From the sequence record PP895363.1: a stretch of 64,000 bases of DNA; one strand, given 5' to 3'. The stretch is from Klebsiella phage FKP3. Below are positions 50,870-64,000 of this stretch, one piece after another. The first letter of the stretch is position 1, and each line of letters opens with the position of its first letter. The translations under genes were made by a program, and so were the position numbers. Under the pieces are notes generated by a model. That model saw only the letters and a list, made by a program, of their open reading frames with translations. It did not search any database and had not been told where the DNA came from.

Positions 50870-52075
50870 TTATCTTGATCTTATTTTATAAGGTTGACCA
50901 AAAGATGCCCTACTTCCACTAGACATTTTACCATATCCTGTGGTAGCTCCTAGTGGCGTAGGAATGGCTACAGCCTTGAATACAGCCTCTTTCATCAGTG
51001 TATTAAAACAAGATGCCGCAGCATCCGGGATATCGTCTTTGAGTGTTGCAGTAGACCTCTCTCCATTGAAAGATTCTAATTCTTTATAAAAGTGATCTAA
51101 AGTTTCTTTATTTGGGAAAGAGTCTTCAACAATATATACAAAACCATTTTGACAAGCACTACTAAAAGGCATAAAACGCTGTAGTTTCTTTTTGTTCCCT
51201 GGCATTGCATCAGGTTTTACAATGAAACCTTCAGAAATAAGCTTCTTAGCAGATTCTGTATATTCAATCAAACCTGCACCAGATGGGTCTTTAGGAAGAA
51301 CTACAATAACCTCATCTCCATCAATTTTACATTGATTAAGAATCAAATTATCTCGTTCACCCGGTAATCTTCTAAATCTACCAAAGATTTTACTTTTCTC
51401 ATCTACTGCATCGTAATCATAATCTCCGAAGATATAGACATTACCATCAGTATCTTTACCCATTTTGACAGACGTGGTATAGTCTGGATAACGATACGAT
51501 TCTGTCGGAACAGATACAGCTTTATCCCATGCTCGCATATACTTCATATTATTTGGCACATCTGAATATTTAATTACATGCAACCATTCTCTATTGAAGA
51601 AACTTTCTTCTTGTGCTCTTGCAAACCAACACCCATCTAAGAGCTGTGCTCTTTTCACTGCGGTTTGTGCTTTCAGAGAGGCTAGATATTTAGGATTAAG
51701 ACGTATAAGCTCTGGATTATCAAATATAGTTCCGCCGATAAATACAAAGCTCTGCGGTTCGATAGTAACTATTTCGCCTGTATTTGGGTTTTCCATGAAG
51801 CAGTTTTCAGGATACTTTTCCTTTAGTTCTTCTGGGTCTTCTGCAAATACCGGTTCATCATTTACAATAAGAAAATATAGTTGTTTACCACACATGTCGT
51901 CGCGTGGAAATCCTGCTTCATCTAGATAAGGTAATACCCAATTAATAACCCAACTATCTGCATCTGGGTTACAGGTGCATAGCATAAAAGATGTTGCAGA
52001 CTCAGAACGTAAACGACCAAGAAGGTAAAGCATTTCATATTGTGTGAAATGTGTCCTGGTGTTCGAGAAGGCACG
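50870..52075 (-). CDS. terL: terminase large subunit, downstream exon (remainder of ATPase C-motif plus nuclease domain)
   Basis: FMLCTCNPDAD (TxN coupling motif) and nuclease-domain acidic residues; frame open upstream of ATG 52033 to stop at 52076-52078. Confidence 0.75.
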   Translation of the reverse strand, partial: RAFSNTRTHFTQYEMLYLLGRLRSESATSFMLCTCNPDADSWVINWVLPYLDEAGFPRDDMCGKQLYFLIVNDEPVFAEDPEELKEKYPENCFMENPNTGEIVTIEPQSFVFIGGTIFDNPELIRLNPKYLASLKAQTAVKRAQLLDGCWFARAQEESFFNREWLHVIKYSDVPNNMKYMRAWDKAVSVPTESYRYPDYTTSVKMGKDTDGNVYIFGDYDYDAVDEKSKIFGRFRRLPGERDNLILNQCKIDGDEVIVVLPKDPSGAGLIEYTESAKKLISEGFIVKPDAMPGNKKKLQRFMPFSSACQNGFVYIVEDSFPNKETLDHFYKELESFNGERSTATLKDDIPDAAASCFNTLMKEAVFKAVAIPTPLGATTGYGKMSSGSRASFGQPYKIRSR

Positions 52076-53392
52076 TTACGACCTTCCCCGAGATTACTCT
52101 CTGCTGCATGTTTCCATGCAGAGCAGACTATATCATCATCCATTAGGATGCCTTGCGCTTCGCCTCACTTGAGGCTACTCTACTCACTTCCGTATTTCTA
52201 CGTGCTTTCGATAGTCGTTAAACTTTACACCACACAAACTAAAAATTATAATCCTTGGATACTTCTGTAAAAGTTTTCCTAGATTTTATTCCGTACACTC
52301 TCTGATAGTTTAGGTGTTCACTGCAATGCATCTTAACTATTGCACCACATTTAAAACCTTTCTCTAACATCTCGCATATCCATTTAACTGTCTCTACTGA
52401 TAAGGTAGCTGGTCGCGTCAGATTGAAAGTATAATCTTTCACTATGTCTGCAAATATAGCCTTCCTTTTAATATTTCGTACTGTGTGATAAGCTACACCA
52501 ACTGTTTCAGAAACATCTTTCGGACTCAAGCCCTCTTCTAAAAGCTCACAGATCGTTCTTACTTCATGTTCTGTCATATTAGTATTTGGACTATTTATAC
52601 CAGCAGCTTTTACATGTAAACCTGTGTCATAAGCATGTTGTACGTTCTGAGAACAACTTACCCATTCCAAATTACTAGGATGATAATTCATTTTATTTCC
52701 ATCCTTATGGTTTACTTGTTTGTACTCCTCTGGAGAAGGATTCTCTACAAAGATTTCAGCCACTATGACATGGAGAGATTTTGTAGTTCTGCGTCCTGTA
52801 TCAGTAGTCATTGCAACAGCAGGATAACCTCCTCTATTACAACGAATAGTTAATTTATTATTTAGTTTTGTACTAAAGATTTCATAATTATCAGTCATAT
52901 GATACTTAGAAAATCCTTTTATTTCATGCATTTTCACCTCCTGCTAACATTAGGAGTTTGCATGGTGTCTTAGCTTGGTATTGCCCTCGTCTCTACGTTA
53001 GGGGTTTCACCAAATTCACAAGGTTTTCGATACATGTTCCCATGTAAAGGCTCTAAAAATCAAAGCTCGTCGAAACCGACCATACTGTATTGTGTACCTT
53101 GCAGTACGTGTTGATTTACTTAGCATATAGGTAAATCGGAGGATTCCTCCTCACCCTTTATGTTACCATAAAGATCAGACCATATCATAACCCACGTCCT
53201 ATGGGTTGTTGGCGCTTGGAGATCGCTTGATCCCTACTCTACTTACAAGCTTTAGCATCTTGCGTCTTGCTTTCGATGGTCGTTGCACCTTACTCCGAAG
53301 AGTCTTGGCTCAGGATTGTCCTCACAATGAGGAGTTTCCCTGAATTCACCAACTTATTCAACATACATTACTGTATGAGGCCACCAAGTTTA
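52034..53392 (-). mobile_element. intron-like insertion in terL (~1.35 kb; probably group I) carrying an HNH homing endonuclease ORF; exact splice sites not determined
   Basis: Noncoding, structure-rich flanks 52076-52238 and 52938-53392 around an in-orientation HNH ORF; it separates the Walker-A-containing terL segment from the C-motif/nuclease segment. Confidence 0.6.
52239..52937 (-). CDS. HNH homing endonuclease (NUMOD4-like N-terminus, HNH motif NHKDGNKMNYHPSNLEW, C-terminal HTH-like repeats)
   Basis: Motifs seen in translation; embedded in the terL interruption in the same orientation. Confidence 0.8.
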   Translation of the reverse strand: MKMHEIKGFSKYHMTDNYEIFSTKLNNKLTIRCNRGGYPAVAMTTDTGRRTTKSLHVIVAEIFVENPSPEEYKQVNHKDGNKMNYHPSNLEWVSCSQNVQHAYDTGLHVKAAGINSPNTNMTEHEVRTICELLEEGLSPKDVSETVGVAYHTVRNIKRKAIFADIVKDYTFNLTRPATLSVETVKWICEMLEKGFKCGAIVKMHCSEHLNYQRVYGIKSRKTFTEVSKDYNF

Positions 53393-54253
53393 ATGGTTAG
53401 TTTCCGCTGTTACGTTATCATTTTCTAAGTGGTCGAATTTTAATGTTCCACCTCCGGTAGCTCTGAACTCCATTTCCATAGCTTGTTCACGAACATGTGG
53501 CTGAAGTTTCAGATATAGCTTTTTAGCTTCTGTAAATAACCCACCAGGCTTACGTAGAGCTGTTGTATTTTTACGGAATAGGATTCCGCCAAACAGTGGG
53601 TCTTTGCAAGCATATTTTAAAGCTTTCAGCAGGAGTAGACGAGACTTGCCGCTATTCCCAGTAACGAAGATATGATCGCCACGTCTAAAGACAACATAAC
53701 TGCTTGGAGTTTCAAAACAATATTTTTTATCATCACTTGTCATTACCTCGTGTATTTTTAGATAAGTGTTAGTTTTACCTGAGATATTAAATGGTACTCT
53801 TTTACCGAAAGGATTTTCTACATACCCTCTAAGTGGTTCTCCTGCTTGCTGCAATGCAATAAGATCTCCAACTAAAATCTCAAAATGTTTTTTAGATTTT
53901 TTCTTTTTATAGAATACAAACCTGTGTTCCATACTAAGTTCTTGGAATAAACCCACACCATTTGTTATTCTATATAAGTTATCTTTTGTATCATACTCTA
54001 CAAAGTATGGACTAACTAACTCCAGTTTCCTGTTTCTTGGATTGTATTGATAAATATCTTCTCCCGAGTATTGATCAATTCTCTTCCATCCTGCTGGTGT
54101 TAAATACTCTGTCTCTGCTGTAACGCATCCCGCAGCACCCCCATAAATCATTACCTCTGGCATTAAATCCATTGCTAATGTTTGTTTACCCGGTTGAGCT
54201 TTTACTTCAATCTCAATATTTGCTAAGTTTGTCTTAACTGGTTTACGTGCCAA
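53393..54253 (-). CDS. terL: terminase large subunit, upstream exon (Walker A ATPase N-terminus) including an in-frame mini-intein
   Basis: MIYGGAAG...SGKSRLLL reconstitutes the P-loop GGAAGSGKS once residues 43-200 are removed. Confidence 0.75.
53654..54127 (-). other. mini-intein (158 aa) inserted in the terminase P-loop
   Basis: Begins CVTAETEYLTPAGW (block A Cys1), block-B-like SMEH, ends ...HIFVTGN followed by +1 Ser; codon positions verified on the DNA. Confidence 0.65.
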
Positions 54254-55652: not shown

Positions 55653-55676
55653 ACAAAAAACCCGCCGAAGCGGGTT
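55653..55676 (-). terminator. Rho-independent terminator at the distal end of the tRNA array (minus sense AACCCGCTTCGGCGGGTT + TTTTTT)
   Basis: 7-bp stem, TTCG loop, T6. Confidence 0.65.
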
Positions 55677-55757
55677 GATTATTTGCGTTAAGAGACGCAA
55701 CCCTCTATTCTTAGAAGGAACTAGGCATGTTCTTCGAAGATACCCGCTGGGCGAGTT

Positions 55758-55834
55758 TGGTACTCCGAACTGGACTCGAACCAGTGTTTGACGATTATCA
55801 GTCGCCTGTTCTTGCCATCTGAACTATCAGAGTA
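55758..55834 (-). tRNA. tRNA-Ile(GAU)
   Basis: Manual cloverleaf: anticodon loop CUGAUAA, T-loop TTCGAGT, CCA encoded. Confidence 0.7.
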
Positions 55835-55953
55835 TGAATGTGTGGGCTAGTCTCTTAGCCCTATGCTATACTTGTCTCTTACAGACTGACGTAGCACACG
55901 TGCAGCGACCCTTCATATTTATTTTACATCTACAGAAGGTCATTAGATAGATT

Positions 55954-56031
55954 TGGCAGCAAAGCGAGGAGTCGAACCCCTTAGTCTGTGGTTTGGAGCC
56001 ACATAGAGCGCCATGCTCATTTAAACTTGCT
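55954..56031 (-). tRNA. tRNA-Trp(CCA), D-region irregular
   Basis: Anticodon stem TGTGG/CCACA with loop CTCCAAA; T-loop TTCGACT; CCA encoded. Confidence 0.5.
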
Positions 56032-56042
56032 CGGCTATTGTT

Positions 56043-56120
56043 TGGAGTCAGGGGCGGGAGTCGAACCCGCAATCTTGAGCATATGAAACTCACATGGTAA
56101 ATCCATTCCACCACCCTGCG
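56043..56120 (-). tRNA. tRNA-Met(CAU) copy 1 (first acceptor pairs mismatched)
   Basis: Anticodon loop TTCATAT, T-arm GCGGG-TTCGACT-CCCGC. Confidence 0.55.
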
Positions 56121-56127
56121 CATTATT

Positions 56128-56203
56128 TGGTAGTAACTAAGAGAATCAAACTCTTCTCACAACGCCGTATGAAAGCGTTCGAAACATCAGCTTCACAGTT
56201 ACT
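56128..56203 (-). tRNA. tRNA-like, anticodon CAU candidate, atypical T-loop TTTGATT (possible pseudo-tRNA)
   Basis: Perfect 7-bp acceptor AGTAACT/AGTTACT, T-stem AAGAG/CTCTT, irregular D/anticodon arms. Confidence 0.35.
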
Positions 56204-56208
56204 TTTAA

Positions 56209-56472
56209 TTAAACACGATGAATAATTTTAACTGTCTCGCCTTTATCATTCATCAAATAAGCACTTTCATCTTTGTGTATGAAGGTGGTAGAACTTCCGC
56301 TGATAACGCTGGCAATAACACTATCTGGCTTTTGATAGCCTTCAAAATGGTATTGGACTTTTATGTTACCATCGAGTTCTATATAATGTTCTTCTTCATC
56401 TACATCAAAAGGTACTGAATCATAAATTTTTGTCCCTTGTGGGAACTTACGAATAATTTTTAATGTGTACAT
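56209..56472 (-). CDS. hypothetical protein, 87 aa, embedded in the tRNA array
   Basis: RBS AAGGAAG upstream in minus sense; ORF. Confidence 0.5.
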   Translation of the reverse strand: MYTLKIIRKFPQGTKIYDSVPFDVDEEEHYIELDGNIKVQYHFEGYQKPDSVIASVISGSSTTFIHKDESAYLMNDKGETVKIIHRV

Positions 56473-56559
56473 AATGCTTCCTTAGTAGTATTTAGTATTA
56501 AATAAATGTGCCGTCCCAAGCCGAACGGCGATTAGTGTTATTGCTTGGCATTGATAATA

Positions 56560-56634
56560 TGGTACTTCCTACAGGAATCGAACCTATGACGCTCACCGTG
56601 TAAAGATGACGTTCTGCCATTGAACTAAGGAAGT
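56560..56634 (-). tRNA. tRNA-Val(UAC)
   Basis: Perfect acceptor, anticodon loop TTTACAC, T-loop TTCGATT. Confidence 0.7.
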
Positions 56635-56707
56635 ATGGCGGGGATTTCCCGCACTGTCTATCGCGATATGGACTCCGACAGTGTTCTCGGTTAAATACCC
56701 CATTATT

Positions 56708-56795
56708 TGGTGCTTCAGGTGAGACTCGAACTCACAATCCTCTAGGGCGCTGGCTTCTAAGACCAGAGTGTATATCCATTTCCACCACTGAAGCA
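56708..56795 (-). tRNA. tRNA-Leu(UAG), class II
   Basis: 88 nt, anticodon loop CTTAGAA, long variable arm, perfect acceptor. Confidence 0.7.
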
Positions 56796-56925
56796 TTATT
56801 TAGTATAGGTTAAGAGTTGTATCGGCCCTCTTCTTAAACGGTGAAAGGAAAGTTTGGTTTTTCTCCAAACGTGCTAACACCTTTTACATCCACTCTAAGT
56901 CATCGGACGCAACCTATATTTTTTT

Positions 56926-57001
56926 TGGTGGAGCCGGAGAGAATCGAACTCTCAACAGGAAAGGTGCAAACCTCCCTCGCTACCTTAGTACATGCAACCC
57001 C
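56926..57001 (-). tRNA. tRNA-Ala(UGC)
   Basis: Anticodon loop TTTGCAC, T-arm GAGAG-TTCGATT-CTCTC. Confidence 0.6.
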
Positions 57002-57133
57002 AAATTTTTGCGCCCCTTTGTAGTGAATGTCTTTAAGCGGAGTCTTTAATGCAAGCAATAAATTTACTCACACACTTAATCTTAGACCTACTCAGATGGA
57101 CGGCTTTAGCATGGCGTCCCATACCTTCTTAAT

Positions 57134-57209
57134 TGGCACGGATGGAAGGAGTCGAACCTCCGGCGCAGGGCTTCGTAAACCCTCGTTCTGTCCACTGAAC
57201 TACACCCGT
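57134..57209 (-). tRNA. tRNA-Arg(ACG)
   Basis: D-stem GTTC/GAAC, anticodon loop TTACGAA. Confidence 0.7.
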
Positions 57210-57338
57210 ATAATACTTTGCCTAAAACGCCACAACTTGTTTGGTCTTGCACCGTGTCAGTTGCTATTTATCGGTAGAATTTGAGCCATTAACCTGAGCG
57301 AATATTTGTCATGGTTGTCACACCATCAAGGCAAAACT

Positions 57339-57413
57339 TGGTGCAACCTACAGGTATCGAGCCTGTCTATCTGCCTTTTCAGGGCAGCACTCATCCATCT
57401 AAGTCAAAGTTGC
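57339..57413 (-). tRNA. tRNA-Phe(GAA)
   Basis: Anticodon stem CTGCC/GGCAG with loop CTGAAAA. Confidence 0.65.
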
Positions 57414-57553
57414 ATATTATTAATTGTCATCATGGAAACCGAAAATCCACGCCATATCAACTCGAAGTTAAAAATCCTTGACTTCGGCACCATCTGGTGC
57501 TGGCTAGGCACTACCTAGCAGGACAGTCACAAAATCGTGACGATGACAAAATT

Positions 57554-57631
57554 TGGTCTCCGTAGAAAGATTTGAACTTTCGACCCCACCGCCCCAAACG
57601 GCATACTCTGACCAGGCTGAGCTACACGGAG
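57554..57631 (-). tRNA. tRNA-Pro(UGG)
   Basis: Anticodon loop TTTGGGG, T-loop TTCAAAT, perfect acceptor. Confidence 0.7.
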
Positions 57632-57716
57632 ATAATACTTTCGAGGAGATCTCACCCTATACAGCAAAACCGTATACTATCTGTCAGGGTTACTGTATAC
57701 TGTGCTCCTCTGAATT

Positions 57717-57792
57717 TGGCTGGGGATCTTGGAATCGAACCAAGTCGATGACGAGTTCAAAGCCCGTCGCCTTCCCATTTGGCTAATCCCCA
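57717..57792 (-). tRNA. tRNA-Gln(UUG)
   Basis: Anticodon loop CTTTGAA, T-arm CTTGG/CCAAG. Confidence 0.6.
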
Positions 57793-57799
57793 ATTAAAC

Positions 57800-57888
57800 T
57801 GGTATAGTGGACGGGATTCGAACCCGCAAGGTAGTTTCCTACTCTAGATTGAAAGTCTAGCTACTTCGACCGATTTGTATACCACTAT
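57800..57888 (-). tRNA. 89-nt tRNA with class-II-like variable hairpin (GTAG-GAAA-CTAC) but anticodon UUC (Glu)
   Basis: Perfect 7-bp acceptor, anticodon stem CTAGA/TCTAG with loop CTTTCAA, T-loop TTCGAAT. Confidence 0.5.
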
Positions 57889-58007
57889 ATAAAATTATTT
57901 AAAAAGGAATGCTAGAACTTGAAGGAGAAAACCATGAGCGAAAAGAGAAAGTTTTCTAACATTCCTGTCTAAATAATCTTGAAATAATCACTTTGTTCAA
58001 GAGTTGT

Positions 58008-58084
58008 TGGTGCGGGTGACAGGATTCGAACCTGCGACGAACTGGGTGGAAGCCAGACACTCTACCAGACTGAGTTACACACGC
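58008..58084 (-). tRNA. tRNA-Gly(UCC)
   Basis: Anticodon loop reads codon GGA; T-loop TTCGAAT. Confidence 0.6.
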
Positions 58085-58333
58085 ACTGATTAAGAACTCT
58101 ACAATATTACTCTACTACATTTTAATACTTATTGTCAAGTGTTAATTTAAAATTGTGAGACAGTGACGGATATCTCATAGATGACTAATCCTACGTCCGG
58201 CTTAAGCAAGGCGACGATATCGTACACCTTCTCGTCGATTGGCAGGAGCCGTTCCTCCTGAATTACTATCTAGCATCTGAGATGAAGACAGCCTCACCAA
58301 TCAACCTACTCCCAGTCACGGTTTCAGAACTTC

Positions 58334-58409
58334 TGGTGCTCCAAGTAGGTTTCGAACCCACGACCCCATGCTTACAAGGCAAGTGCTCTACCAACTGAGC
58401 TATTGAAGC
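58334..58409 (-). tRNA. tRNA-Thr(UGU)
   Basis: Anticodon loop CTTGTAA; T-loop TTCGAAA. Confidence 0.65.
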
Positions 58410-58626
58410 AAATAGTATTTTATTATTGAAAGGTATTCCACCATAATATCAAGGTTTGCCGATGCAGTAGTTCGGGAACTAGACAATGCCGCTTACGCGC
58501 TGGTTATCTCAATTCAAACCCACTGCAAACCGTGGTAGTTGAGGCCAGTTTCTTTTCCACTTGTTTCCACTTATAAGTCTTAACCAGACCGGGATACGGG
58601 CTTATAAGATCATCAATAATAAAATT

Positions 58627-58711
58627 TGGCGATGGATCAAGGATTTGAACCTTGCTGGAGATTTCTCTCACGGATTAACAGTCCGCCGCCCAACCACTAG
58701 GCCAATCCATC
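58627..58711 (-). tRNA. 85-nt tRNA with class-II-like variable hairpin (GAGA-GAAA-TCTC) but anticodon GUU (Asn)
   Basis: Perfect acceptor GATGGAT/ATCCATC, anticodon loop CTGTTAA, T-loop TTCAAAT. Confidence 0.5.
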
Positions 58712-58788
58712 ATTATTCTTTGTTAAGAGTAGGCGCGTATTCCGTCGCCTCGTGTTATTTTCTCCTGTTTCCAGGCTCCCTTTAGAGC

Positions 58789-58864
58789 AGCGGGCAGGGA
58801 GAATCGAACTCCCTTAGCATCTTTCAGCAAACCCGAAGGTCATTGTCTAGCCACGACCACCCGC
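58789..58864 (-). tRNA. tRNA-like gene without encoded CCA; anticodon arm irregular (possible 9-nt loop containing UUU)
   Basis: Good T-arm GGGAG-TTCGATT-CTCCC and acceptor GCGGGTG/TGCCCGC. Confidence 0.4.
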
Positions 58865-58901
58865 ACAGTTATGTGTACCTCTAAAGCTCTCTTAACTAAT
58901 C

Positions 58902-58984
58902 TGGTGTGGGTAGATGGATTCGAACCACCGCGCCTTTCGGATCTGATTTACAGTCAGGTGCATTCAGCCACTCTGCCATACCCA
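58902..58984 (-). tRNA. tRNA-Tyr(GUA), class II
   Basis: 83 nt, anticodon loop CTGTAAA, variable hairpin CC-GAAA-GG. Confidence 0.65.
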
Positions 58985-59059
58985 CATTATCTGGTGTGGT
59001 ACTTGTTACTGATTCTTCTGACGATACAGATACCTCTCATATAACTTTCCCACATTATC

Positions 59060-59136
59060 TGGTACGCCGGAAAGGATTCGAACCTTTATTCCTCTCGTTA
59101 AAAGCGAGATGCCTTATCCAGTTTAGCTACCGACGC
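59060..59136 (-). tRNA. tRNA-Lys(UUU)
   Basis: Perfect anticodon stem TCTCG/CGAGA, loop CTTTTAA. Confidence 0.7.
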
Positions 59137-59244
59137 ATAAATATTTTTTAAGATAGCAACCGCTTAACGATTGCTATAAGTTAAGGTTACTTTTAAACAA
59201 TAAATCAATCACCAATAACATCCTTGCTATCTTAAAAAACACTT

Positions 59245-59330
59245 TGGCGGAAGAGGGGAGGGTTGAACTCCCACGCCCTTTCGGACGGCAGTTTAGCAAA
59301 CTGCTATGGCTACCATTTCATCACTCTTCC
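59245..59330 (-). tRNA. tRNA-Ser(GCU), class II
   Basis: 86 nt, anticodon stem GCAGT/ACTGC, loop TTGCTAA. Confidence 0.7.
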
Positions 59331-59334
59331 TAAA

Positions 59335-59766
59335 TTAATTTCCTTTCGTTCTGTATTTGATGGCTCTTTTTTCAGGATCGTAGTTTTGTTTTCTTCTTTC
59401 CTGTTCGAGCAATCTTGCTTGTCTATATGCAACAGAACATTCTTCACAACGGCAACCTCTTTTTTGATACGCATAACTTGTACCGTGAACGATAGGTTTT
59501 TCAACCCTGTTTATTACCGTCCCAGTTTCACTTACACGTCTTGCTGCCGCAGAGTTACAGCTATGATGGCTATAACTAATATTCTCTAACCCAAAGAACA
59601 TCTTATCTGGTTCCTCTGAATATCTCCAAGGAACAATGTGTTCAATGCTATAATTGTCTTCGTTCATCTCTTTACCACAATGGTAACAAGAAGTTCTTCC
59701 TGTCTCGACAATCATTTGCCACATGAGTTTTCTTATCAGAATGTTTCGCGCTTTTCCCATCGACAT
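59335..59766 (-). CDS. HNH endonuclease embedded in the tRNA array (143 aa from ATG 59766)
   Basis: Zn-binding CYHCGKEM...SIEHIVPW...HHSCN HNH core; the track start at 59832 overlaps tRNA-Asp, so the internal Met with upstream purine-rich RBS is preferred. Confidence 0.7.
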   Translation of the reverse strand: MSMGKARNILIRKLMWQMIVETGRTSCYHCGKEMNEDNYSIEHIVPWRYSEEPDKMFFGLENISYSHHSCNSAAARRVSETGTVINRVEKPIVHGTSYAYQKRGCRCEECSVAYRQARLLEQERRKQNYDPEKRAIKYRTKGN

Positions 59767-59802
59767 ACCTAACTCGTCGCTCACGATACACTCCTTATAA
59801 AT

Positions 59803-59878
59803 TGGCGCGACTGACGATACTCGAACTCGCATTCTCTCCTGTGACAGGGGAGTACCATTACCTAGCCAGCCCCGCGAC
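59803..59878 (-). tRNA. tRNA-Asp(GUC); acceptor stem has 2 mismatches; flanked by direct repeat GCGCGACT
   Basis: Standard-position anticodon loop CTGTCAC, T-loop TTCGAGT, CCA encoded. Confidence 0.5.
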
Positions 59879-59884
59879 TATAAT

Positions 59885-59986
59885 TTATAAATCTGGTCGT
59901 TCATCTCTGTTAACTAAACGGATACCACCGTCAGATAAAACTTCAAGTTTTGAATATTGATAAACTACGACCTTGTTATCACTCAT
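59885..59986 (-). CDS. small ORF, 33 aa
   Basis: ATG with GGAGT RBS 6 nt upstream. Confidence 0.3.
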   Translation of the reverse strand: MSDNKVVVYQYSKLEVLSDGGIRLVNRDERPDL

Positions 59987-60028
59987 TGTTACTCCGGTTA
60001 ATACAAGCATTATAATCTCCTAAGTTTG

Positions 60029-60118
60029 TGGCGGAAGATAACGGAGTCGAACCATCACCATATCGCTACAGCGGGCTGGTTTTCAAGACCAGTTGCGTAC
60101 CGCTACGCCCTATCTTCC
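60029..60118 (-). tRNA. tRNA-Ser(UGA), class II
   Basis: 90 nt, perfect acceptor, anticodon stem CTGGT/ACCAG, loop CTTGAAA. Confidence 0.7.
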
Positions 60119-60194
60119 ACATCTATACTTACTACTCTATCATACTTTTCAATCAGTTGTCAAGAAAAACTTTCCACCTTTTTTGACAATTATT

Positions 60195-60269
60195 TGGTAG
60201 AGCCACTAGGAATCGAACCTAGACTGTAGAGTTAGAAGCTCCATTTGCTATCCATTACAACATAGCTCC
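60195..60269 (-). tRNA. tRNA-Arg(UCU)
   Basis: Anticodon loop CTTCTAA, T-arm CTAGG/CCTAG. Confidence 0.7.
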
Positions 60270-60296
60270 ATTTATTTAGGCCAACTATAACACACA

Positions 60297-60467
60297 CTAT
60301 TCGTTATTGTCAAGCTCTTTTTTAATTTCTTTTTTAGCTTTCTGACGTTCAGTAGCTTTACACACTTCTTGCCAAGAGTCGTACTCATCTCCTTTACGAT
60401 AGCCACGGCTACGACAAAGAGAACATAGACAACCTTCTTGACTATATTTCAAACCATGAGGTTTCAT
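60297..60467 (-). CDS. small Cys-rich protein, 56 aa (not in track)
   Basis: ATG 60467 after AAGGAA; CxC...C spacing. Confidence 0.4.
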   Translation of the reverse strand: MKPHGLKYSQEGCLCSLCRSRGYRKGDEYDSWQEVCKATERQKAKKEIKKELDNNE

Positions 60468-60475
60468 GAGTTTCC

Positions 60476-60727
60476 TTAGATTATCAGAGTTTTAAACTTA
60501 ATGCAAATGATTTTCTTCTTACCGCCTACATACTGCCAATGATGTATCTCCGCAGCTACTTCTAGGGAAGTTCCTACTTCACGGTAGGCGTGAGTGATTA
60601 CATCAATCCAGTATTCACAATCAGGCTGATAAATCATACTGTAGTGCTTATCAATCAACGTATTGATACCGCCGCAATCTCCAATTGTCTTACGCCACGG
60701 TGTACTCTTCATAACAAACTTTTCCAA
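60476..60727 (-). CDS. hypothetical protein, 83 aa
   Basis: ORF. Confidence 0.45.
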   Translation of the reverse strand: MEKFVMKSTPWRKTIGDCGGINTLIDKHYSMIYQPDCEYWIDVITHAYREVGTSLEVAAEIHHWQYVGGKKKIICIKFKTLII

Positions 60728-60849
60728 GTTTTATCAGGAATTTCTGATGGAGGAATCTTACCTTCTGTCTTGGCTTTATCGTCTACTGCTTTTTTAATAG
60801 CTTGAACCTGTGCCTCGGTTAAAGGGCCATCATCTTTTTCGTATGCCAT
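60709..60849 (-). CDS. small ORF, 46 aa
   Basis: ATG after AGGAGA. Confidence 0.3.
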   Translation of the reverse strand: MAYEKDDGPLTEAQVQAIKKAVDDKAKTEGKIPPSEIPDKTWKSLL

Positions 60850-61192
60850 TATATTTCTCCTATTTATTATCAAAACACATAAAGGAGGACAATGATCAGG
60901 TGACGTTTGCCAACGCCCTGCCGAAGTTTAGAGATGGTTGCAAATCATCCCCAACCGCATCACTGGTTTAAACTCACATGATCAGTGCTTGTTTCTGGAT
61001 ACTCACACGCCCATACGTGCAGACAGTTTTAACGCCAATCAATGCCTTTCTTTATATGTTCTGTATGGTTGACTGCTACAGGACTTGAACCTGTTTCTCT
61101 TCGCGCGGATTTACGTTGTACCAACATGTGAGGAATCGAACCTCTCCACTACCCTACCGAAGCGCATATACCTATCATGCTCATACAGTCAT

Positions 61193-61267
61193 TGGAGGAT
61201 GATATGGGATTTTAACCCATCTAATACTGTTTTGCAGACAGTCTCCTAGACACTCGGACAATCATCC
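61193..61267 (-). tRNA. tRNA-Cys(GCA), T-loop TTAAAAT atypical
   Basis: Perfect anticodon stem ACTGT/ACAGT with loop reading codon UGC; acceptor GGATGAT/ATCATCC. Confidence 0.6.
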
Positions 61268-61276
61268 CATTGAAAA

Positions 61277-61354
61277 TGGTGTGACTGGTGGGGCATGATC
61301 CCACATCATCTCCTTCACAGGGAGAAACGTTAACCAGCTTACGCTCACAGTCAC
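61277..61354 (-). tRNA. tRNA-His(GUG), T-loop sequence atypical
   Basis: Perfect anticodon stem TCTCC/GGAGA with loop reading codon CAC; perfect acceptor; extra 5' G possible. Confidence 0.6.
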
Positions 61355-61708
61355 CATTGATTTTGCAGTTGCTATTCTCCTTAAACACCGCACATACGGT
61401 ATTAAGCAGAATAACTTTCGTGCTGCTTCACGATGTGGAGTTCCCCACATTGAAGTTTGTTCACACTTGTCACAGTGCTTCTCTTCCGAGTAAACCACTC
61501 TCGTAGTTGCTGACAAACAACTCGTAAAATATATTCTCGTAAGAACATATATTGCGAGAGTTTGGCACCAGGAGGAGGAATCGAACACTCCTAATCAGGT
61601 CATGACTCCTGACTATCTCAAACCAAACACTGTTGTGTCGGCTATTGCATAATAGCGAGCGCTCACTCCTATGCAGACCTTCACCAGTGTCGAGATCCTG
61701 GTATTGTT

Positions 61709-61797
61709 TGGTGCGGGTAGTGGGAGTCGAACCCACAGGAGGAAACCCTCCGAGGGATTTTAAATCCCTTGCGTACTGCCAATACCGCCATACCCGC
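61709..61797 (-). tRNA. tRNA-Leu(UAA), class II
   Basis: 89 nt, anticodon stem AGGGA/TCCCT with loop TTTAAAA, variable hairpin GGAGG-AAAC-CCTCC. Confidence 0.7.
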
Positions 61798-61808
61798 ATT
61801 AAATTTAG

Positions 61809-61883
61809 TGACCCCCGGAGGATTCGAACCTACCTACCTCTCGATTATGAGTCGATTGCTCATACCTAATGAGCTTGAGGGCC
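61809..61883 (-). tRNA. tRNA with anticodon CAU (third CAU species: Met, fMet or Ile-lysidine), CCA not encoded
   Basis: D-stem CTCA/TGAG, anticodon loop CTCATAA, 7-bp acceptor GGCCCTC/GGGGGTC. Confidence 0.55.
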
Positions 61884-62557: not shown

Positions 62558-64000
62558 CTATTTCACTTCAATCAAATGATTCATAACCTCTTTATCCAGA
62601 CGAGCACGGATATCGTTGAAATCTTCATCACGACCGTTCACCTGGGGAATTAATACATTCCCGTTACGGAAGATGGGTTGAAGCAGGTTATCTTCATCAT
62701 TAATCTCTTCAAACGAGATGTTATCCACTTGATGCAGGATACCATCTTTACGAACAACCTTGATGAATCCTTTCGCAGAGCGTTTACTTGGGTCTGTTTT
62801 CGGTTCTTTGCTCACCATGATTTCGTAATCGTCAATGAAGCAGCCAGTCGCTTTCACAGCCATACCAAAGGTATCACGAGTGTTAAACTGATAGGTGAAG
62901 CTACCAACGCCGAATACGATGTTTGAAGAAGCAAAACCCTTTTCTTTGAGACGTTTAAGAATTTCGATCTCACGCTCAACAGTGATAGAATCCCCGTAAA
63001 TCATGCCGATGTGAGTATCCAGCACTTTATAGCCTTTGCTGTTCACTTCACCACCAAAGATTTCCCACAATACTTGGATGGAACCTACAGCCTCATGGCG
63101 TGGAATCTGTTGACATTCTGCGTCAATAACCCAAGTCTGAGTCGTTAATGAATAACGGGGTTCAAAATAACCATTTTTTGTACTAACCAAAAGGTCTTCA
63201 ACTTCATATGGTTTAATGTTTTCCAGTTCTTCTTCACTAACAATGTTGTATCCCGCAACTACTTTAACCGGATCACCAGAATCAGGACGAACAACCAAAC
63301 GACCATTACGCATCATGATTTCTTCTTTCAGTTCCGGCAGAATACGAGTGAGCACAGCCCAGTAATCGTAAGAGTCTGCAACATAAGAGCAGAAACCTTC
63401 CGGCACAATGTCTCGGATGAAAGTCAGAAGGAATTCCTTCTCAGCCAGATAACGGAGGCCATCTACATCACCTGCTAAGTGAGGGAAATGCTCTTCCAGA
63501 TCTTTTACGATACGACTGATATTGGTAGTTGCAACAGAGTGTTCAGAAGCAGGGATACTACCAGCTACAAACTGATCATCATCAATACCATAGTATTCGT
63601 GGACAGCTTCAATACCCAAGATGTTATCTGTACCAGTGAACGACGCTAGGTGAGCGATGCCACTCTTATACCCGTCTTCTACGGTGGACAAACCACGCAG
63701 ACTGAAATCATGACACTGGAAGTTAACGTGATCCACGTTGTCACAGGTTGCCAGGGCGTAGGACATTGCCACACGCTTATACTGGAACGCAGCGGTTGCG
63801 TTGGTGATCGTTTTCCAGCTTTCGGTTGACATAAGTGTTTCGATGTAGTTAGTCACCCAGAAGAATTTCTCTACGGTGTTATGGATGGTATACACCGGAA
63901 TACCAATCGGTGACAGAATACCTTCCGGCAGAGCGCGGATTTCAACTGGCAGATAACCCAGATCGTGAAGTTCACCCCAACATTCTGCTGATGGTGCAGC
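62558..64000 (-). CDS. nadV: nicotinamide phosphoribosyltransferase (NAMPT/NadV-like), 5'-truncated by the window edge
   Basis: VADSYDYW motif and overall NAMPT-like sequence; frame remains open from the track's GTG 63895 to position 64000 with no stop. Confidence 0.8.
   Translation of the reverse strand, partial: AAPSAECWGELHDLGYLPVEIRALPEGILSPIGIPVYTIHNTVEKFFWVTNYIETLMSTESWKTITNATAAFQYKRVAMSYALATCDNVDHVNFQCHDFSLRGLSTVEDGYKSGIAHLASFTGTDNILGIEAVHEYYGIDDDQFVAGSIPASEHSVATTNISRIVKDLEEHFPHLAGDVDGLRYLAEKEFLLTFIRDIVPEGFCSYVADSYDYWAVLTRILPELKEEIMMRNGRLVVRPDSGDPVKVVAGYNIVSEEELENIKPYEVEDLLVSTKNGYFEPRYSLTTQTWVIDAECQQIPRHEAVGSIQVLWEIFGGEVNSKGYKVLDTHIGMIYGDSITVEREIEILKRLKEKGFASSNIVFGVGSFTYQFNTRDTFGMAVKATGCFIDDYEIMVSKEPKTDPSKRSAKGFIKVVRKDGILHQVDNISFEEINDEDNLLQPIFRNGNVLIPQVNGRDEDFNDIRARLDKEVMNHLIEVK

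Follow-up and report, generated by a model that had tools for sequence, protein, structure and literature searches.

The DNA analysed here is a 64,000-nucleotide (nt) stretch of the genome of Klebsiella phage FKP3 (sequence record PP895363.1; hereafter, the window), in which ARAGORN called an array of transfer RNA (tRNA) genes that includes one tRNA-Glu(UUC) and one tRNA-Asn(GUU) gene (Table 1). According to textbooks, a long variable arm is confined in bacteria to the Ser, Leu, Tyr and Sec tRNAs. According to the original prediction, which was made from the letters of the window, these Glu and Asn genes carry long variable-arm hairpins with GAAA loops, and no other tRNA of the array would decode Glu or Asn codons; the hairpins were recovered by ARAGORN, Rfam and minimum free energy (MFE) folding, and ARAGORN found no other Glu or Asn gene in the array. 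Apart from the Ser, Leu and Tyr genes and these two, all tRNAs of the array were 75–78 nt long by ARAGORN.

Table 1. Features of the tRNA array of Klebsiella phage FKP3 and its surroundings, in window positions.
Feature	Position	Strand	Length or content	Basis
tRNA-Glu(UUC)	57800–57888	−	89 nt with encoded CCA	ARAGORN; Rfam, 56.1 bits; MFE fold; sequence
Anticodon UUC of tRNA-Glu	57851–57853	−	gaa on the plus strand	ARAGORN anticodon position 36
Variable region of tRNA-Glu	57828–57843	−	16 nt, A-GUAG-GAAA-CUAC-CUU = AGUAGGAAACUACCUU	Sequence and MFE fold
tRNA-Asn(GUU)	58627–58711	−	85 nt with encoded CCA	ARAGORN; Rfam, 54.9 bits; MFE fold; asnT alignment
Anticodon GUU of tRNA-Asn	58677–58679	−		ARAGORN; sequence; asnT alignment
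Variable region of tRNA-Asn	58655–58669	−	15 nt, GAGA-GAAA-UCUC-CAG = GAGAGAAAUCUCCAG	Sequence and MFE fold
tRNA array containing both genes	55758–61883	−	23 genes	ARAGORN
Promoter-like site upstream of Gly	58109–58138	−	TTGACA-18-TAGAGT	Consensus scan only
Terminator-like hairpin after the last array tRNA	55659–55676			Consensus-type scan only
isrK-like match	55655–55719	−		Rfam, 27.7 bits, below threshold
tRNA-Sec-like match between Ile and Met	55959–56030	−		Rfam, 22.6 bits, below threshold
Open reading frame (ORF) between Ser(GCU) and Ser(UGA)	59335–59832	−	165 amino acids	HNH_5, E = 2e-4, a weak match short of the Pfam cut-off
Nicotinate phosphoribosyltransferase gene	62558–63895	−		Pfam NAPRTase, E = 6e-39
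Terminase large subunit gene, split	50870–54253	−		
Terminase part, phAPEC8 residues 1–288	53390–54253			85% identity
Terminase part, phAPEC8 residues 309–691	50870–52033			86% identity
HNH_3 endonuclease ORF in the terminase gap	52239–52937			

Both genes matched the full length (positions 1–71) of the Rfam tRNA model RF00005 with E-values of ~3e-10 (Glu) and ~6e-10 (Asn), at scores far above the gathering score of 29 bits, and thus are not chance matches; the Rfam tRNA-Sec model was the best match for neither. The MFE folds were cloverleaves with one extra hairpin, and ARAGORN, Rfam and MFE folding gave no standard 76-nt refold and no Ser, Tyr or Leu register of the anticodon loop. The Glu gene combines a 7-base-pair (bp) acceptor stem (AUAGUGG/CCACUAU, with A1-U72) and A73 with a 3-bp D stem, a 12-nt D loop, a 5-bp anticodon stem (CUAGA/UCUAG) around the loop CUUUCAA, and a 5-bp T stem that includes one G.U pair. 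Its extra stem (GUAG/CUAC, 4 bp) is closed by the GNRA loop GAAA and leaves 1 nt unpaired on the 5' side and 3 nt on the 3' side. The Asn gene likewise has a 7-bp acceptor stem (GAUGGAU/AUCCAUC, with G1-C72), followed by G73; it carries G9, a 4-bp D stem with U13.G22, a 5-bp T stem, the anticodon loop CUGUUAA, and an extra stem (GAGA/UCUC, 4 bp) with the same GNRA loop and 3 nt unpaired on the 3' side. Direct alignment showed that its anticodon arm, C25 to U43 (19 nt), is identical to that of Escherichia coli asnT. Of the perfect stems originally described, the two acceptor stems and the Glu anticodon stem stood, but the Asn anticodon stem (GCGGA/UCCGU) is not strictly perfect because of its G27.U43 wobble; the variable regions measured 15–16 nt and not the 13–15 nt given, and the GAAA loop said to be shared with the Tyr, Ser and Leu genes of the array recurs in Tyr and Ser(GCU) but not in the two Leu genes or Ser(UGA), which have other loops. 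The acceptor and T stems of both genes form a 7/5 branch and not the 8/4, 9/3 or 8/5 branches of allo-tRNAs and tRNA-Sec.

The extra stem behaves as a structural element. In an alignment of nine long-arm Asn genes from Stephanstirmvirinae, Seunavirus, Karamvirus and IMG/VR, 97.2% of the cells of the extra stem were paired and three of its four pairs changed on both sides, which is on par with the four canonical helices. The covariation score of the whole structure was 0.719, compared to 0.215 after shuffling and at most 0.14 when the pairing partners were slid. For the Glu arm the covariation count was dropped, as the MAFFT register was inconsistent, and hairpin statistics and a list of stems were used instead; compensatory stem variants were seen in Citrobacter phage Tr1 (GAGG/CCUC), in a huge phage (CAC/GUG) and in Rhodococcus phage Trina (GUCC/GGAC). 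Hairpins of at least 4 bp were present in 53% of long-arm Asn genes (25% when shuffled) and 84% of long-arm Glu genes (36% when shuffled), and GNRA loops closed 42% of the long Asn arms. The covariation of the extra stem indicates that the arm is kept by selection.

Long-arm Asn and Glu genes recur in other phages. The window region was 94–96% identical to the Klebsiella phages KP2025, KP13-26 and phi1_175008 (Stephanstirmvirinae, phAPEC8/phi92 group). The Glu gene was 100% identical across four Klebsiella phage records and 86.5% identical, without annotation, in phage Tr1, with weaker matches in the 642-kb uncultured phage LR756502.1 and in phage Trina; ARAGORN confirmed long-arm Glu(UUC) genes in all three (89, 86 and 87 nt, respectively), and in LR756502.1 the long gene adjoins a normal Glu(UUC) gene. 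Over at least 80% of its length, the Asn gene matched 133 phage records, at ~93% identity in Justusliebigvirus, ~87% in Seunavirus and ~74% in Phapecoctavirus, and the long arm was confirmed in muut, Tr1, phAPEC8, the Seunavirus phages KE23 and SalP219, the T4-like phage CC31 (Karamvirus) and the T5-related Providencia phage PR1. A second query, a long-arm Asn gene from a T5-sized IMG/VR contig, added 521 records at 80% coverage or more, among them T5-like Salmonella and Escherichia phages (Spc35, AKFV33, Stitch) and T4-like Klebsiella phages (JD18). Together the two queries bring the number of GenBank phage records with a long-arm Asn gene to more than 650 (133 + 521), spread over Stephanstirmvirinae, Seunavirus, Karamvirus CC31, Priunavirus, other T5-like phages and T4-like Klebsiella phages. 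The Asn gene of T5 itself is short-armed (78 nt) with a mutated stem (UAAGUU). GenBank either labels the long-arm genes plainly as tRNA-Asn or tRNA-Glu or misses them.

When IMG/VR was scanned for CTGTTAA followed by the T-loop consensus 21–32 nt later, the first 120 matches contained at least 101 distinct long-arm Asn(GUU) genes, with variable regions of 11–25 nt and highly diverse stems. When the length restriction was lifted, the scan gave 12 re-hits of the long set, which held ten long genes, and 108 new loci, where one of 97 Asn genes was long; in this unbiased slice the long arm is therefore present in ~11/110, or about one in ten, phage Asn(GUU) genes, and the variable loop of the short ones is 4–6 nt. 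Long-arm Glu(UUC) is rare, since the 78 Glu genes of the unbiased sample included none; 19 distinct genes were found in all, including those of Trina and two huge phages. A short Asn gene was also present at 23 of 95 long-Asn loci, and in this phage and most Stephanstirmvirinae the phage Asn and Glu genes are all long. Contigs with long-arm Asn or Glu also held long-arm Thr(UGU), Ile(UAU), Met(CAU) including initiator-like forms, Lys, His, Cys and Trp. Long-Asn contigs were enriched in long-arm Thr(UGU) (14/44 vs 2/51), Met(CAU) (13/57 vs 3/52) and Lys(UUU) (5/51 vs 0/35), and in other long-arm tRNAs taken together (80/913 vs 29/680, p = 4e-4).

Among the 120 matches listed from 185,579 cellular species genomes, 14 were real long-arm Asn genes, nine of them in dense arrays of 10–36 tRNAs per 8 kb (Mycobacterium, Micromonospora, Verrucosispora, Planctomycetota and others); three archaeal ones, in which the anticodon stem does not pair, are probably artefacts of introns. 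When 5,426 complete E. coli genomes were searched by blastn, neither gene had a match at E-values up to 10, the query being too short for the 19-nt identity with asnT. As the few cellular genomes with the long arm mostly hold it in tRNA arrays, the trait belongs to phages and mobile tRNA arrays. In the full-text literature searched we found no description of long-arm phage tRNAs for Asn or Glu, which is not proof of novelty; long-arm Asn, which is widespread, and long-arm Glu apparently are undescribed phage tRNA families. The suggestion that the two window genes could be hybrids is not supported, as both belong to old, conserved families with the acceptor ends of ordinary phage Asn and Glu tRNAs.

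Other unusual tRNAs turned up in the same collections. A 92-nt tRNA-Ile(UAU)-like group in IMG/VR (for example at loci L133, L136, L138, L198, L211 and L234) ends in A73-CCA and has a 24-nt variable region (consensus UCAGCGCCAGAUUAGCGUUCUCGA) and a very short D region (GGUGUUGGUACACAGG); its contigs also hold an initiator-like Met(CAU) with a C1 mismatch and long-arm Lys with anticodons UUU or CUU. At locus L054 (2681–2777), the variable region of a 97-nt gene called as tRNA-Glu(UUC) is a tandem duplication of its own D-stem/anticodon-arm segment (GGAUAUCGCCCUUUCACGGC twice), which probably makes it a duplication artefact or pseudogene and not a true extra arm. Arrays of 17–36 tRNAs per 8 kb with a long-arm Asn(GUU) in Thermoguttaceae, Mycobacterium, Verrucosispora, Micromonospora, Acidobacteriota and Planctomycetota (L360, L367, L425, L451, L455 and L475) link bacterial array units to the phage families.

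The isotype marks of the long-arm families were compared with those of ordinary phage tRNAs. Long-arm Asn genes begin with U1-A72 (63/98) or G1-C72 (32/98), as do short phage Asn genes (27/43 and 14/43), and carry G73 at a similar rate (90/98 and 38/43), whereas A73 was present in 58 of 60 phage Tyr genes. The pairs G2-C71 and A3-U70, found in 142/150 (95%) and 113/150 (75%) of Ser tRNAs, occurred in 36/99 and 21/99 long-arm Asn genes. Long-arm Glu genes have N1-U72, as G.U or A-U, in 17/19 cases and A73 in 17/19 (short phage Glu: 53/71 and 57/71), and share the loop CUUUCAA in 17/19 (short phage Glu: 30/71); with A1-U72, A73 and CUUUCAA, the window gene shows this phage tRNA-Glu pattern. Long-arm Thr genes likewise retain G1-C72 and C2-G71. 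Judged by these positions, the synthetase-read ends of both window genes are true to isotype. The set read by asparaginyl-tRNA synthetase (AsnRS), which we take from work in E. coli to be G34, U35 and U36 plus G73, is complete in the window Asn, and a role for the anticodon and discriminator has been stated for the Asp/Asn pair (PMC9976931). For E. coli glutamyl-tRNA synthetase (GluRS), the identity elements are U34, U35, C36 and A37, with U2-A71 as a weak determinant (PMC9976931), and the window Glu has all of these.

Because the acceptor-end marks are those of ordinary Asn and Glu tRNAs, and not of Ser, Tyr or Leu tRNAs, cognate charging by the host AsnRS and GluRS is the most likely outcome; we regard it as highly probable for the Asn gene. 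For the Glu gene our confidence in it is moderate, owing to the missing determinants in the D helix. E. coli GluRS recognizes an augmented D helix with U11-A24, U13-G22:A46 and no residue 47 (PMC9976931), and short phage Glu tRNAs mostly keep these features (63/102, 72/102 and a 4-nt variable loop in 72/102). The following features weigh against cognate charging. The window Glu has A11-U24, A13/A22 and its long variable region in place of the D-helix determinants, and U11-A24 was present in 0/19 long-arm Glu genes; it also combines A73 with A15-U48 in a Leu-like manner, but with 3 unpaired 3' nt. The window Asn departs from the class I architecture of tRNA-Asn, with its 4–5 nt variable loop, through its 15-nt region and 4-bp hairpin. 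Its G73, G9, C11-G24 and 4-bp extra stem partly resemble the determinants of seryl-tRNA synthetase (SerRS), and its body outside the anticodon arm was nearest to Ser and Tyr tRNAs, at a low score. In addition, class II synthetases such as AsnRS approach the tRNA from the side of the variable loop, so the arm could hinder AsnRS.

These features raise the alternative that the arm recruits, deliberately or as something tolerated, one of the synthetases that serve class II tRNAs, so that AAY or GAR codons are partly read otherwise; the candidates would be SerRS for the G73 Asn type and leucyl- or tyrosyl-tRNA synthetase (LeuRS, TyrRS) for the A73 Glu type. In allo-tRNAs, Ser identity was suggested by a long arm together with G73 or U73 (PMC5389517); GGG is read as Leu by nev-tRNA-Gly (PMC4033280); and besides the features just listed the window Asn has G1-C72 and the window Glu a class II D arm. 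We nevertheless consider mischarging improbable. The Ser marks G2-C71 and A3-U70 are missing from the window Asn, which has A2-U71 and U3-A70, and from most long-arm Asn genes; Ser arms have 5–6 bp and 1 unpaired 3' nt, compared to 3–4 bp and 3–4 nt here; only C11-G24 and G73 of the Asn gene fit the tRNA-Ser set, and the Glu gene fails its discriminator with A73. The Leu hallmark A15-U48, present in 104/118 Leu tRNAs, occurs in only 6/19 long-arm Glu genes. TyrRS requires GUA and A73, and although the arm geometry fits tRNA-Tyr, the anticodons are GUU and UUC and the Asn gene has G73. The anticodon loop and discriminator of the nominal isotype are conserved, which a synthetase blind to the anticodon would not need. 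Finally, Glu codons account for 6.2% and Asn codons for 5.6% of the long ORFs of the window, together about 12% of phage coding sequence, so that systematic misreading would be very costly; the two genes are the sole phage decoders of these codons, whereas nev-tRNAs target rare ones. A reading of the two genes as hybrid or recoded tRNAs is not favoured, and their sequence marks speak against nev-like recoding, in which class II synthetase elements would be kept and Leu or Ser carried against the anticodon. Isotype models of tRNAscan-SE would not settle identity, because in phage Sf14 as many as 13 of 25 unique tRNAs (14 of 26 genes) score inconsistently with them (PMC12482277).

We therefore read the two genes, with reasonable but far from complete confidence, as intact elongator tRNAs of the isotype that their anticodons indicate, in which a Tyr-type extra arm would have become fixed and selected. 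As to where the arm came from, the bodies were compared by nearest neighbour after removal of the anticodon loop and variable region, a test that is informative for Glu, weakly so for Asn and uninformative for Thr. Long-arm Glu bodies were nearest to short Glu in 14/19 cases. Among 99 long-arm Asn bodies the nearest were Asn in 32, Ser in 11, Tyr in 11 and Leu in 5, and the short-Asn control returned Asn in 23/40. In long-arm Asn, Thr and Glu genes the arm has a 3–4 bp stem with 0–1 unpaired nt on the 5' side and 3–4 nt on the 3' side, which is like Tyr and unlike Ser (5–6 bp, 1 nt unpaired 3') or Leu (1 nt unpaired 3'). The cores are class II-like, and the Asn gene possibly derives from an ancient Tyr-type scaffold; for long-arm Glu, insertion of a hairpin into a Glu body seems more likely. 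An origin of the GUU gene from Tyr(GUA) by an A36U change, as first suggested, is not supported as a recent event, and neither is a recent Tyr-to-Asn duplication in this phage, because the Asn–Tyr identity of 59% is no higher than that to unrelated tRNAs and equals the background in this lineage.

An older anticodon shift is the main alternative to a protective function of the arm. Here a class II gene would have changed its anticodon (Tyr GUA to Asn GUU by A36U plus A73G), charging would be cognate, and the arm would have no special role and persist since a class II core would misfold without it. The Tyr-like arm geometry is consistent with such a relic, as are the enrichment of G9 in long-arm Asn (43/99, vs 10/137 in short Asn), which is also found in class II tRNAs, the 27 of 99 long-arm Asn bodies nearest to Ser, Tyr or Leu, and the 71% identity of the phAPEC8 Asn gene to the adjacent Tyr gene, with similar D and anticodon arms. 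A single substitution separates each of the commonest long-arm anticodons (GUU, UGU, UAU, CAU, GCA, GUG and CCA) from one of class II. For UUC, however, no class II anticodon lies that close; long-arm Glu bodies resemble short Glu, and some of the genes have the look of an ordinary phage Glu into which a hairpin was inserted. Nor does a relic fit well with the 32 of 99 long-arm Asn bodies nearest to short Asn and the two thirds with U1-A72, with an arm and covariation kept across very divergent phage groups, or with the non-random co-occurrence with other long-arm tRNAs, which suggests ongoing selection. We judge this explanation unlikely, though a serious competitor.

On the reading as selected elongators, both genes would be transcribed with the array and would not need CCA addition. 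Host AsnRS would read GUU and G73, and host GluRS would read U34, U35, C36 and A37 with the acceptor end, so that AAY would stay Asn and GAR would stay Glu, a step that is firmer for Asn than for Glu. Purifying selection keeps the extra hairpin, as the compensatory stem changes show, and the trait is one of phages and mobile arrays that clusters, within contigs, with long-arm Thr(UGU), Met(CAU), Ile(UAU) and Lys(UUU). The arm may then alter the docking surface such that host tRNA-cutting defence nucleases, or other factors, reject the phage copy; the anticodon arm could stay identical to that of the host, so that synthetases and modification enzymes still work, and this would be an alternative to the anticodon-stem mutations of T5.

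That the arm shields the tRNA against defence nucleases is our leading idea on its function, a tentative one that we rate as less likely than not. In a broader and equally speculative form, phages would repeatedly graft a Tyr-type arm onto nuclease-depleted isoacceptors (Asn GUU, Thr UGU, Lys UUU, initiator and elongator Met, and Glu UUC) as a general structural counter-defence, and the arm might, with no better odds, block Toprim- or HEPN-type tRNases that dock at the anticodon stem and D arm. The E. coli tRNAs cut by the PARIS effector AriB are Lys(UUU), Thr(UGU) and Asn(GUU); the cut falls at 40|41 after U36AAUC, and in a model the second AriB subunit sits on the D loop (PMC12409363). P2-OLD cuts anticodon stems with paired CNG motifs (PMC12445682). 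With its host-identical anticodon arm, the window Asn keeps both motifs: its anticodon is followed by U39, C40 and C41, so the AriB site UAAUC|C and the CNG-paired motif of P2-OLD are retained. The extra arm emerges from the core just behind position 43, beside these cut sites, and we count the co-occurrence of long-arm Thr(UGU) and Lys(UUU) with long-arm Asn in favour of protection. Other observations speak against it. UAAUC was retained no more often in long-arm Asn (40/93, 43%) than in short Asn (55/136, 40%); Met(CAU), one of the isotypes that gain the arm, was not an AriB substrate (PMC12409363); and PtuAB nucleases attack the variable loop of Tyr itself. Moreover, phage Bas34 still depends, in the face of PARIS, on T5 tRNA-Asn supplied in trans (PMC12409363), and its own Asn gene belongs to the long-arm type. 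The Asn gene of Bas34 (Escherichia phage SelmaRatti; L568, 296–378), annotated with 77 nt, is a 5'-truncated call of a long-arm Asn with the arm GUC-GAAA-GAC; it has three acceptor-stem mismatches and was not called by ARAGORN. These mismatches make Bas34 uninformative on protection from PARIS and may explain its need for the T5 tRNA.

Alternatively, the genes may not be primarily decoders and could act as decoys, sponges or regulators for host defence proteins that bind tRNA, such as PtuAB-type nucleases that recognize the Tyr variable loop, or as handles for processing enzymes. Long-arm Asn is one anticodon base from Tyr and has a Tyr-like arm, and the adjoining long and normal Glu genes of LR756502.1 and the loci with both long and short Asn would suit such a role. 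The PARIS study (PMC12409363) also raises the matter of a further role, in addition to the rescue of translation, for some viral tRNAs. We give this little credence, because in this phage and most Stephanstirmvirinae no phage Asn or Glu gene exists besides the long ones, and because the conserved acceptor stem, T loop, CCA, anticodon loop and discriminator point to aminoacylation and use by the ribosome. No candidate partner protein or tRNA-related enzyme was seen near the array, where only HNH endonucleases, NAPRTase, terminase and portal genes were found.

Compared to known systems, the closest structural likeness is with bacterial class II tRNAs, in particular Tyr: a 7/5 cloverleaf, a hairpin between the anticodon and T arms with a 3–4 bp stem and ~3 unpaired 3' nt, G9 and class II-like D arms, and GNRA loops, which are common in phage Ser and Leu arms. 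The difference from tRNA-Tyr lies in the anticodons GUU and UUC, in G73 of the Asn gene, and in acceptor stems that follow Asn and Glu patterns. In nematodes, the nev-tRNAs (Hamashima 2012, reviewed in PMC4033280) are of class II but bear Gly or Ile anticodons, and so share the long arm on anticodons of class I isotypes; they keep Leu/Ser synthetase elements, are charged with Leu, are weakly expressed and serve rare codons (PMC4033280), whereas the phage families keep Asn and Glu marks, are the sole phage decoders of abundant codons and come from viruses of bacteria. Allo-tRNAs and the (8/4) phage tRNA-Ser and -His (Mukai 2017, PMC5389517) are also non-standard, some of them long-armed, with odd anticodons and in phage tRNA clusters, but have 8/4 or 9/3 branches and Sec-like D arms, in contrast to the plain 7/5 of the Glu and Asn genes. 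Nuclease-resistant phage tRNAs (T5 Lys, Thr and Asn against PARIS AriB, phage Thr against P2-OLD, and T5 Tyr against retron-Eco7) are likewise nuclease-depleted isoacceptors (Asn GUU, Thr UGU, Lys UUU and Tyr) with a structure that departs from the host; known examples escape because bases are substituted in their anticodon stem-loop, in the D loop or in an existing Tyr variable loop, while the window Asn, known here from its sequence, has a host-identical anticodon arm and a whole added arm. Finally, the dense arrays that hold nine of the 14 cellular long-arm Asn genes resemble bacterial tRNA array units (Mycobacterium and others; L-arrays), whose tRNAs reportedly depart from their chromosomal counterparts in three arms, the D, anticodon and variable arms (PMC12803027); the papers on array units contain no report of long-arm Asn or Glu, and the window is from a lytic-type myovirus genome.

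A review holds that bacterial tRNA genes "lack structural diversity" (PMC4033280). The class I/class II arm rule is routinely broken in phages, in about a tenth of sampled phage tRNA-Asn genes, and the long-arm Asn genes of hundreds of sequenced T5-like, T4-like, rV5-like and phAPEC8-like phages have been annotated simply as tRNA-Asn. If these tRNAs are charged cognately, several synthetases of class I tRNAs accept class II bodies, which bears on identity rules and on the engineering of orthogonal tRNAs. If arms are indeed grafted onto nuclease-depleted isoacceptors, then AsnRS, GluRS and the Thr and Lys synthetases (ThrRS, LysRS) all tolerate class II tRNA bodies, and there would be a second tRNA-based route of immune evasion, distinct from mutation of the anticodon loop or stem. 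Should the arm protect against PARIS, OLD, PrrC and similar systems, it would be a new and easily testable anti-defence device and would partly explain why large phages carry tRNA arrays; should the tRNAs be mischarged, they would represent natural codon reassignment by a virulent phage.

Within the array, the promoter-like site upstream of Gly could drive the Gly-Glu-Gln-Pro stretch, and similar sites (TTGACA-N18-TAnAnT, minus strand; consensus scan only) lie at 60163, 60313, 61924 and 62255; several of these sites precede groups of tRNA genes, but as consensus matches they are no proof of function. The isrK-like match overlaps the terminator-like hairpin, and the tRNA-Sec-like match is possibly a decayed tRNA. 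The ORF between the two Ser genes recalls the SegB-type homing endonucleases of T4/T6 tRNA regions; at exactly this place the relative KP13-26 has a tRNA-Asp, and the window has no Asp tRNA. The KP13-26 array also holds a 1431-nt ORF and a 75-nt tRNA with the anticodon CUA (L001, 8348–8422), amber-suppressor-like and called as tRNA-Pyl, and ARAGORN called no counterparts of this ORF and tRNA in the window. The nicotinate phosphoribosyltransferase gene lies directly upstream of the array, as in muut. The terminase large subunit gene, an uninterrupted 2085-nt gene in relatives, is split by a gap of ~1.35 kb that holds the HNH_3 endonuclease ORF and looks like an intron or mobile insertion with a homing endonuclease.

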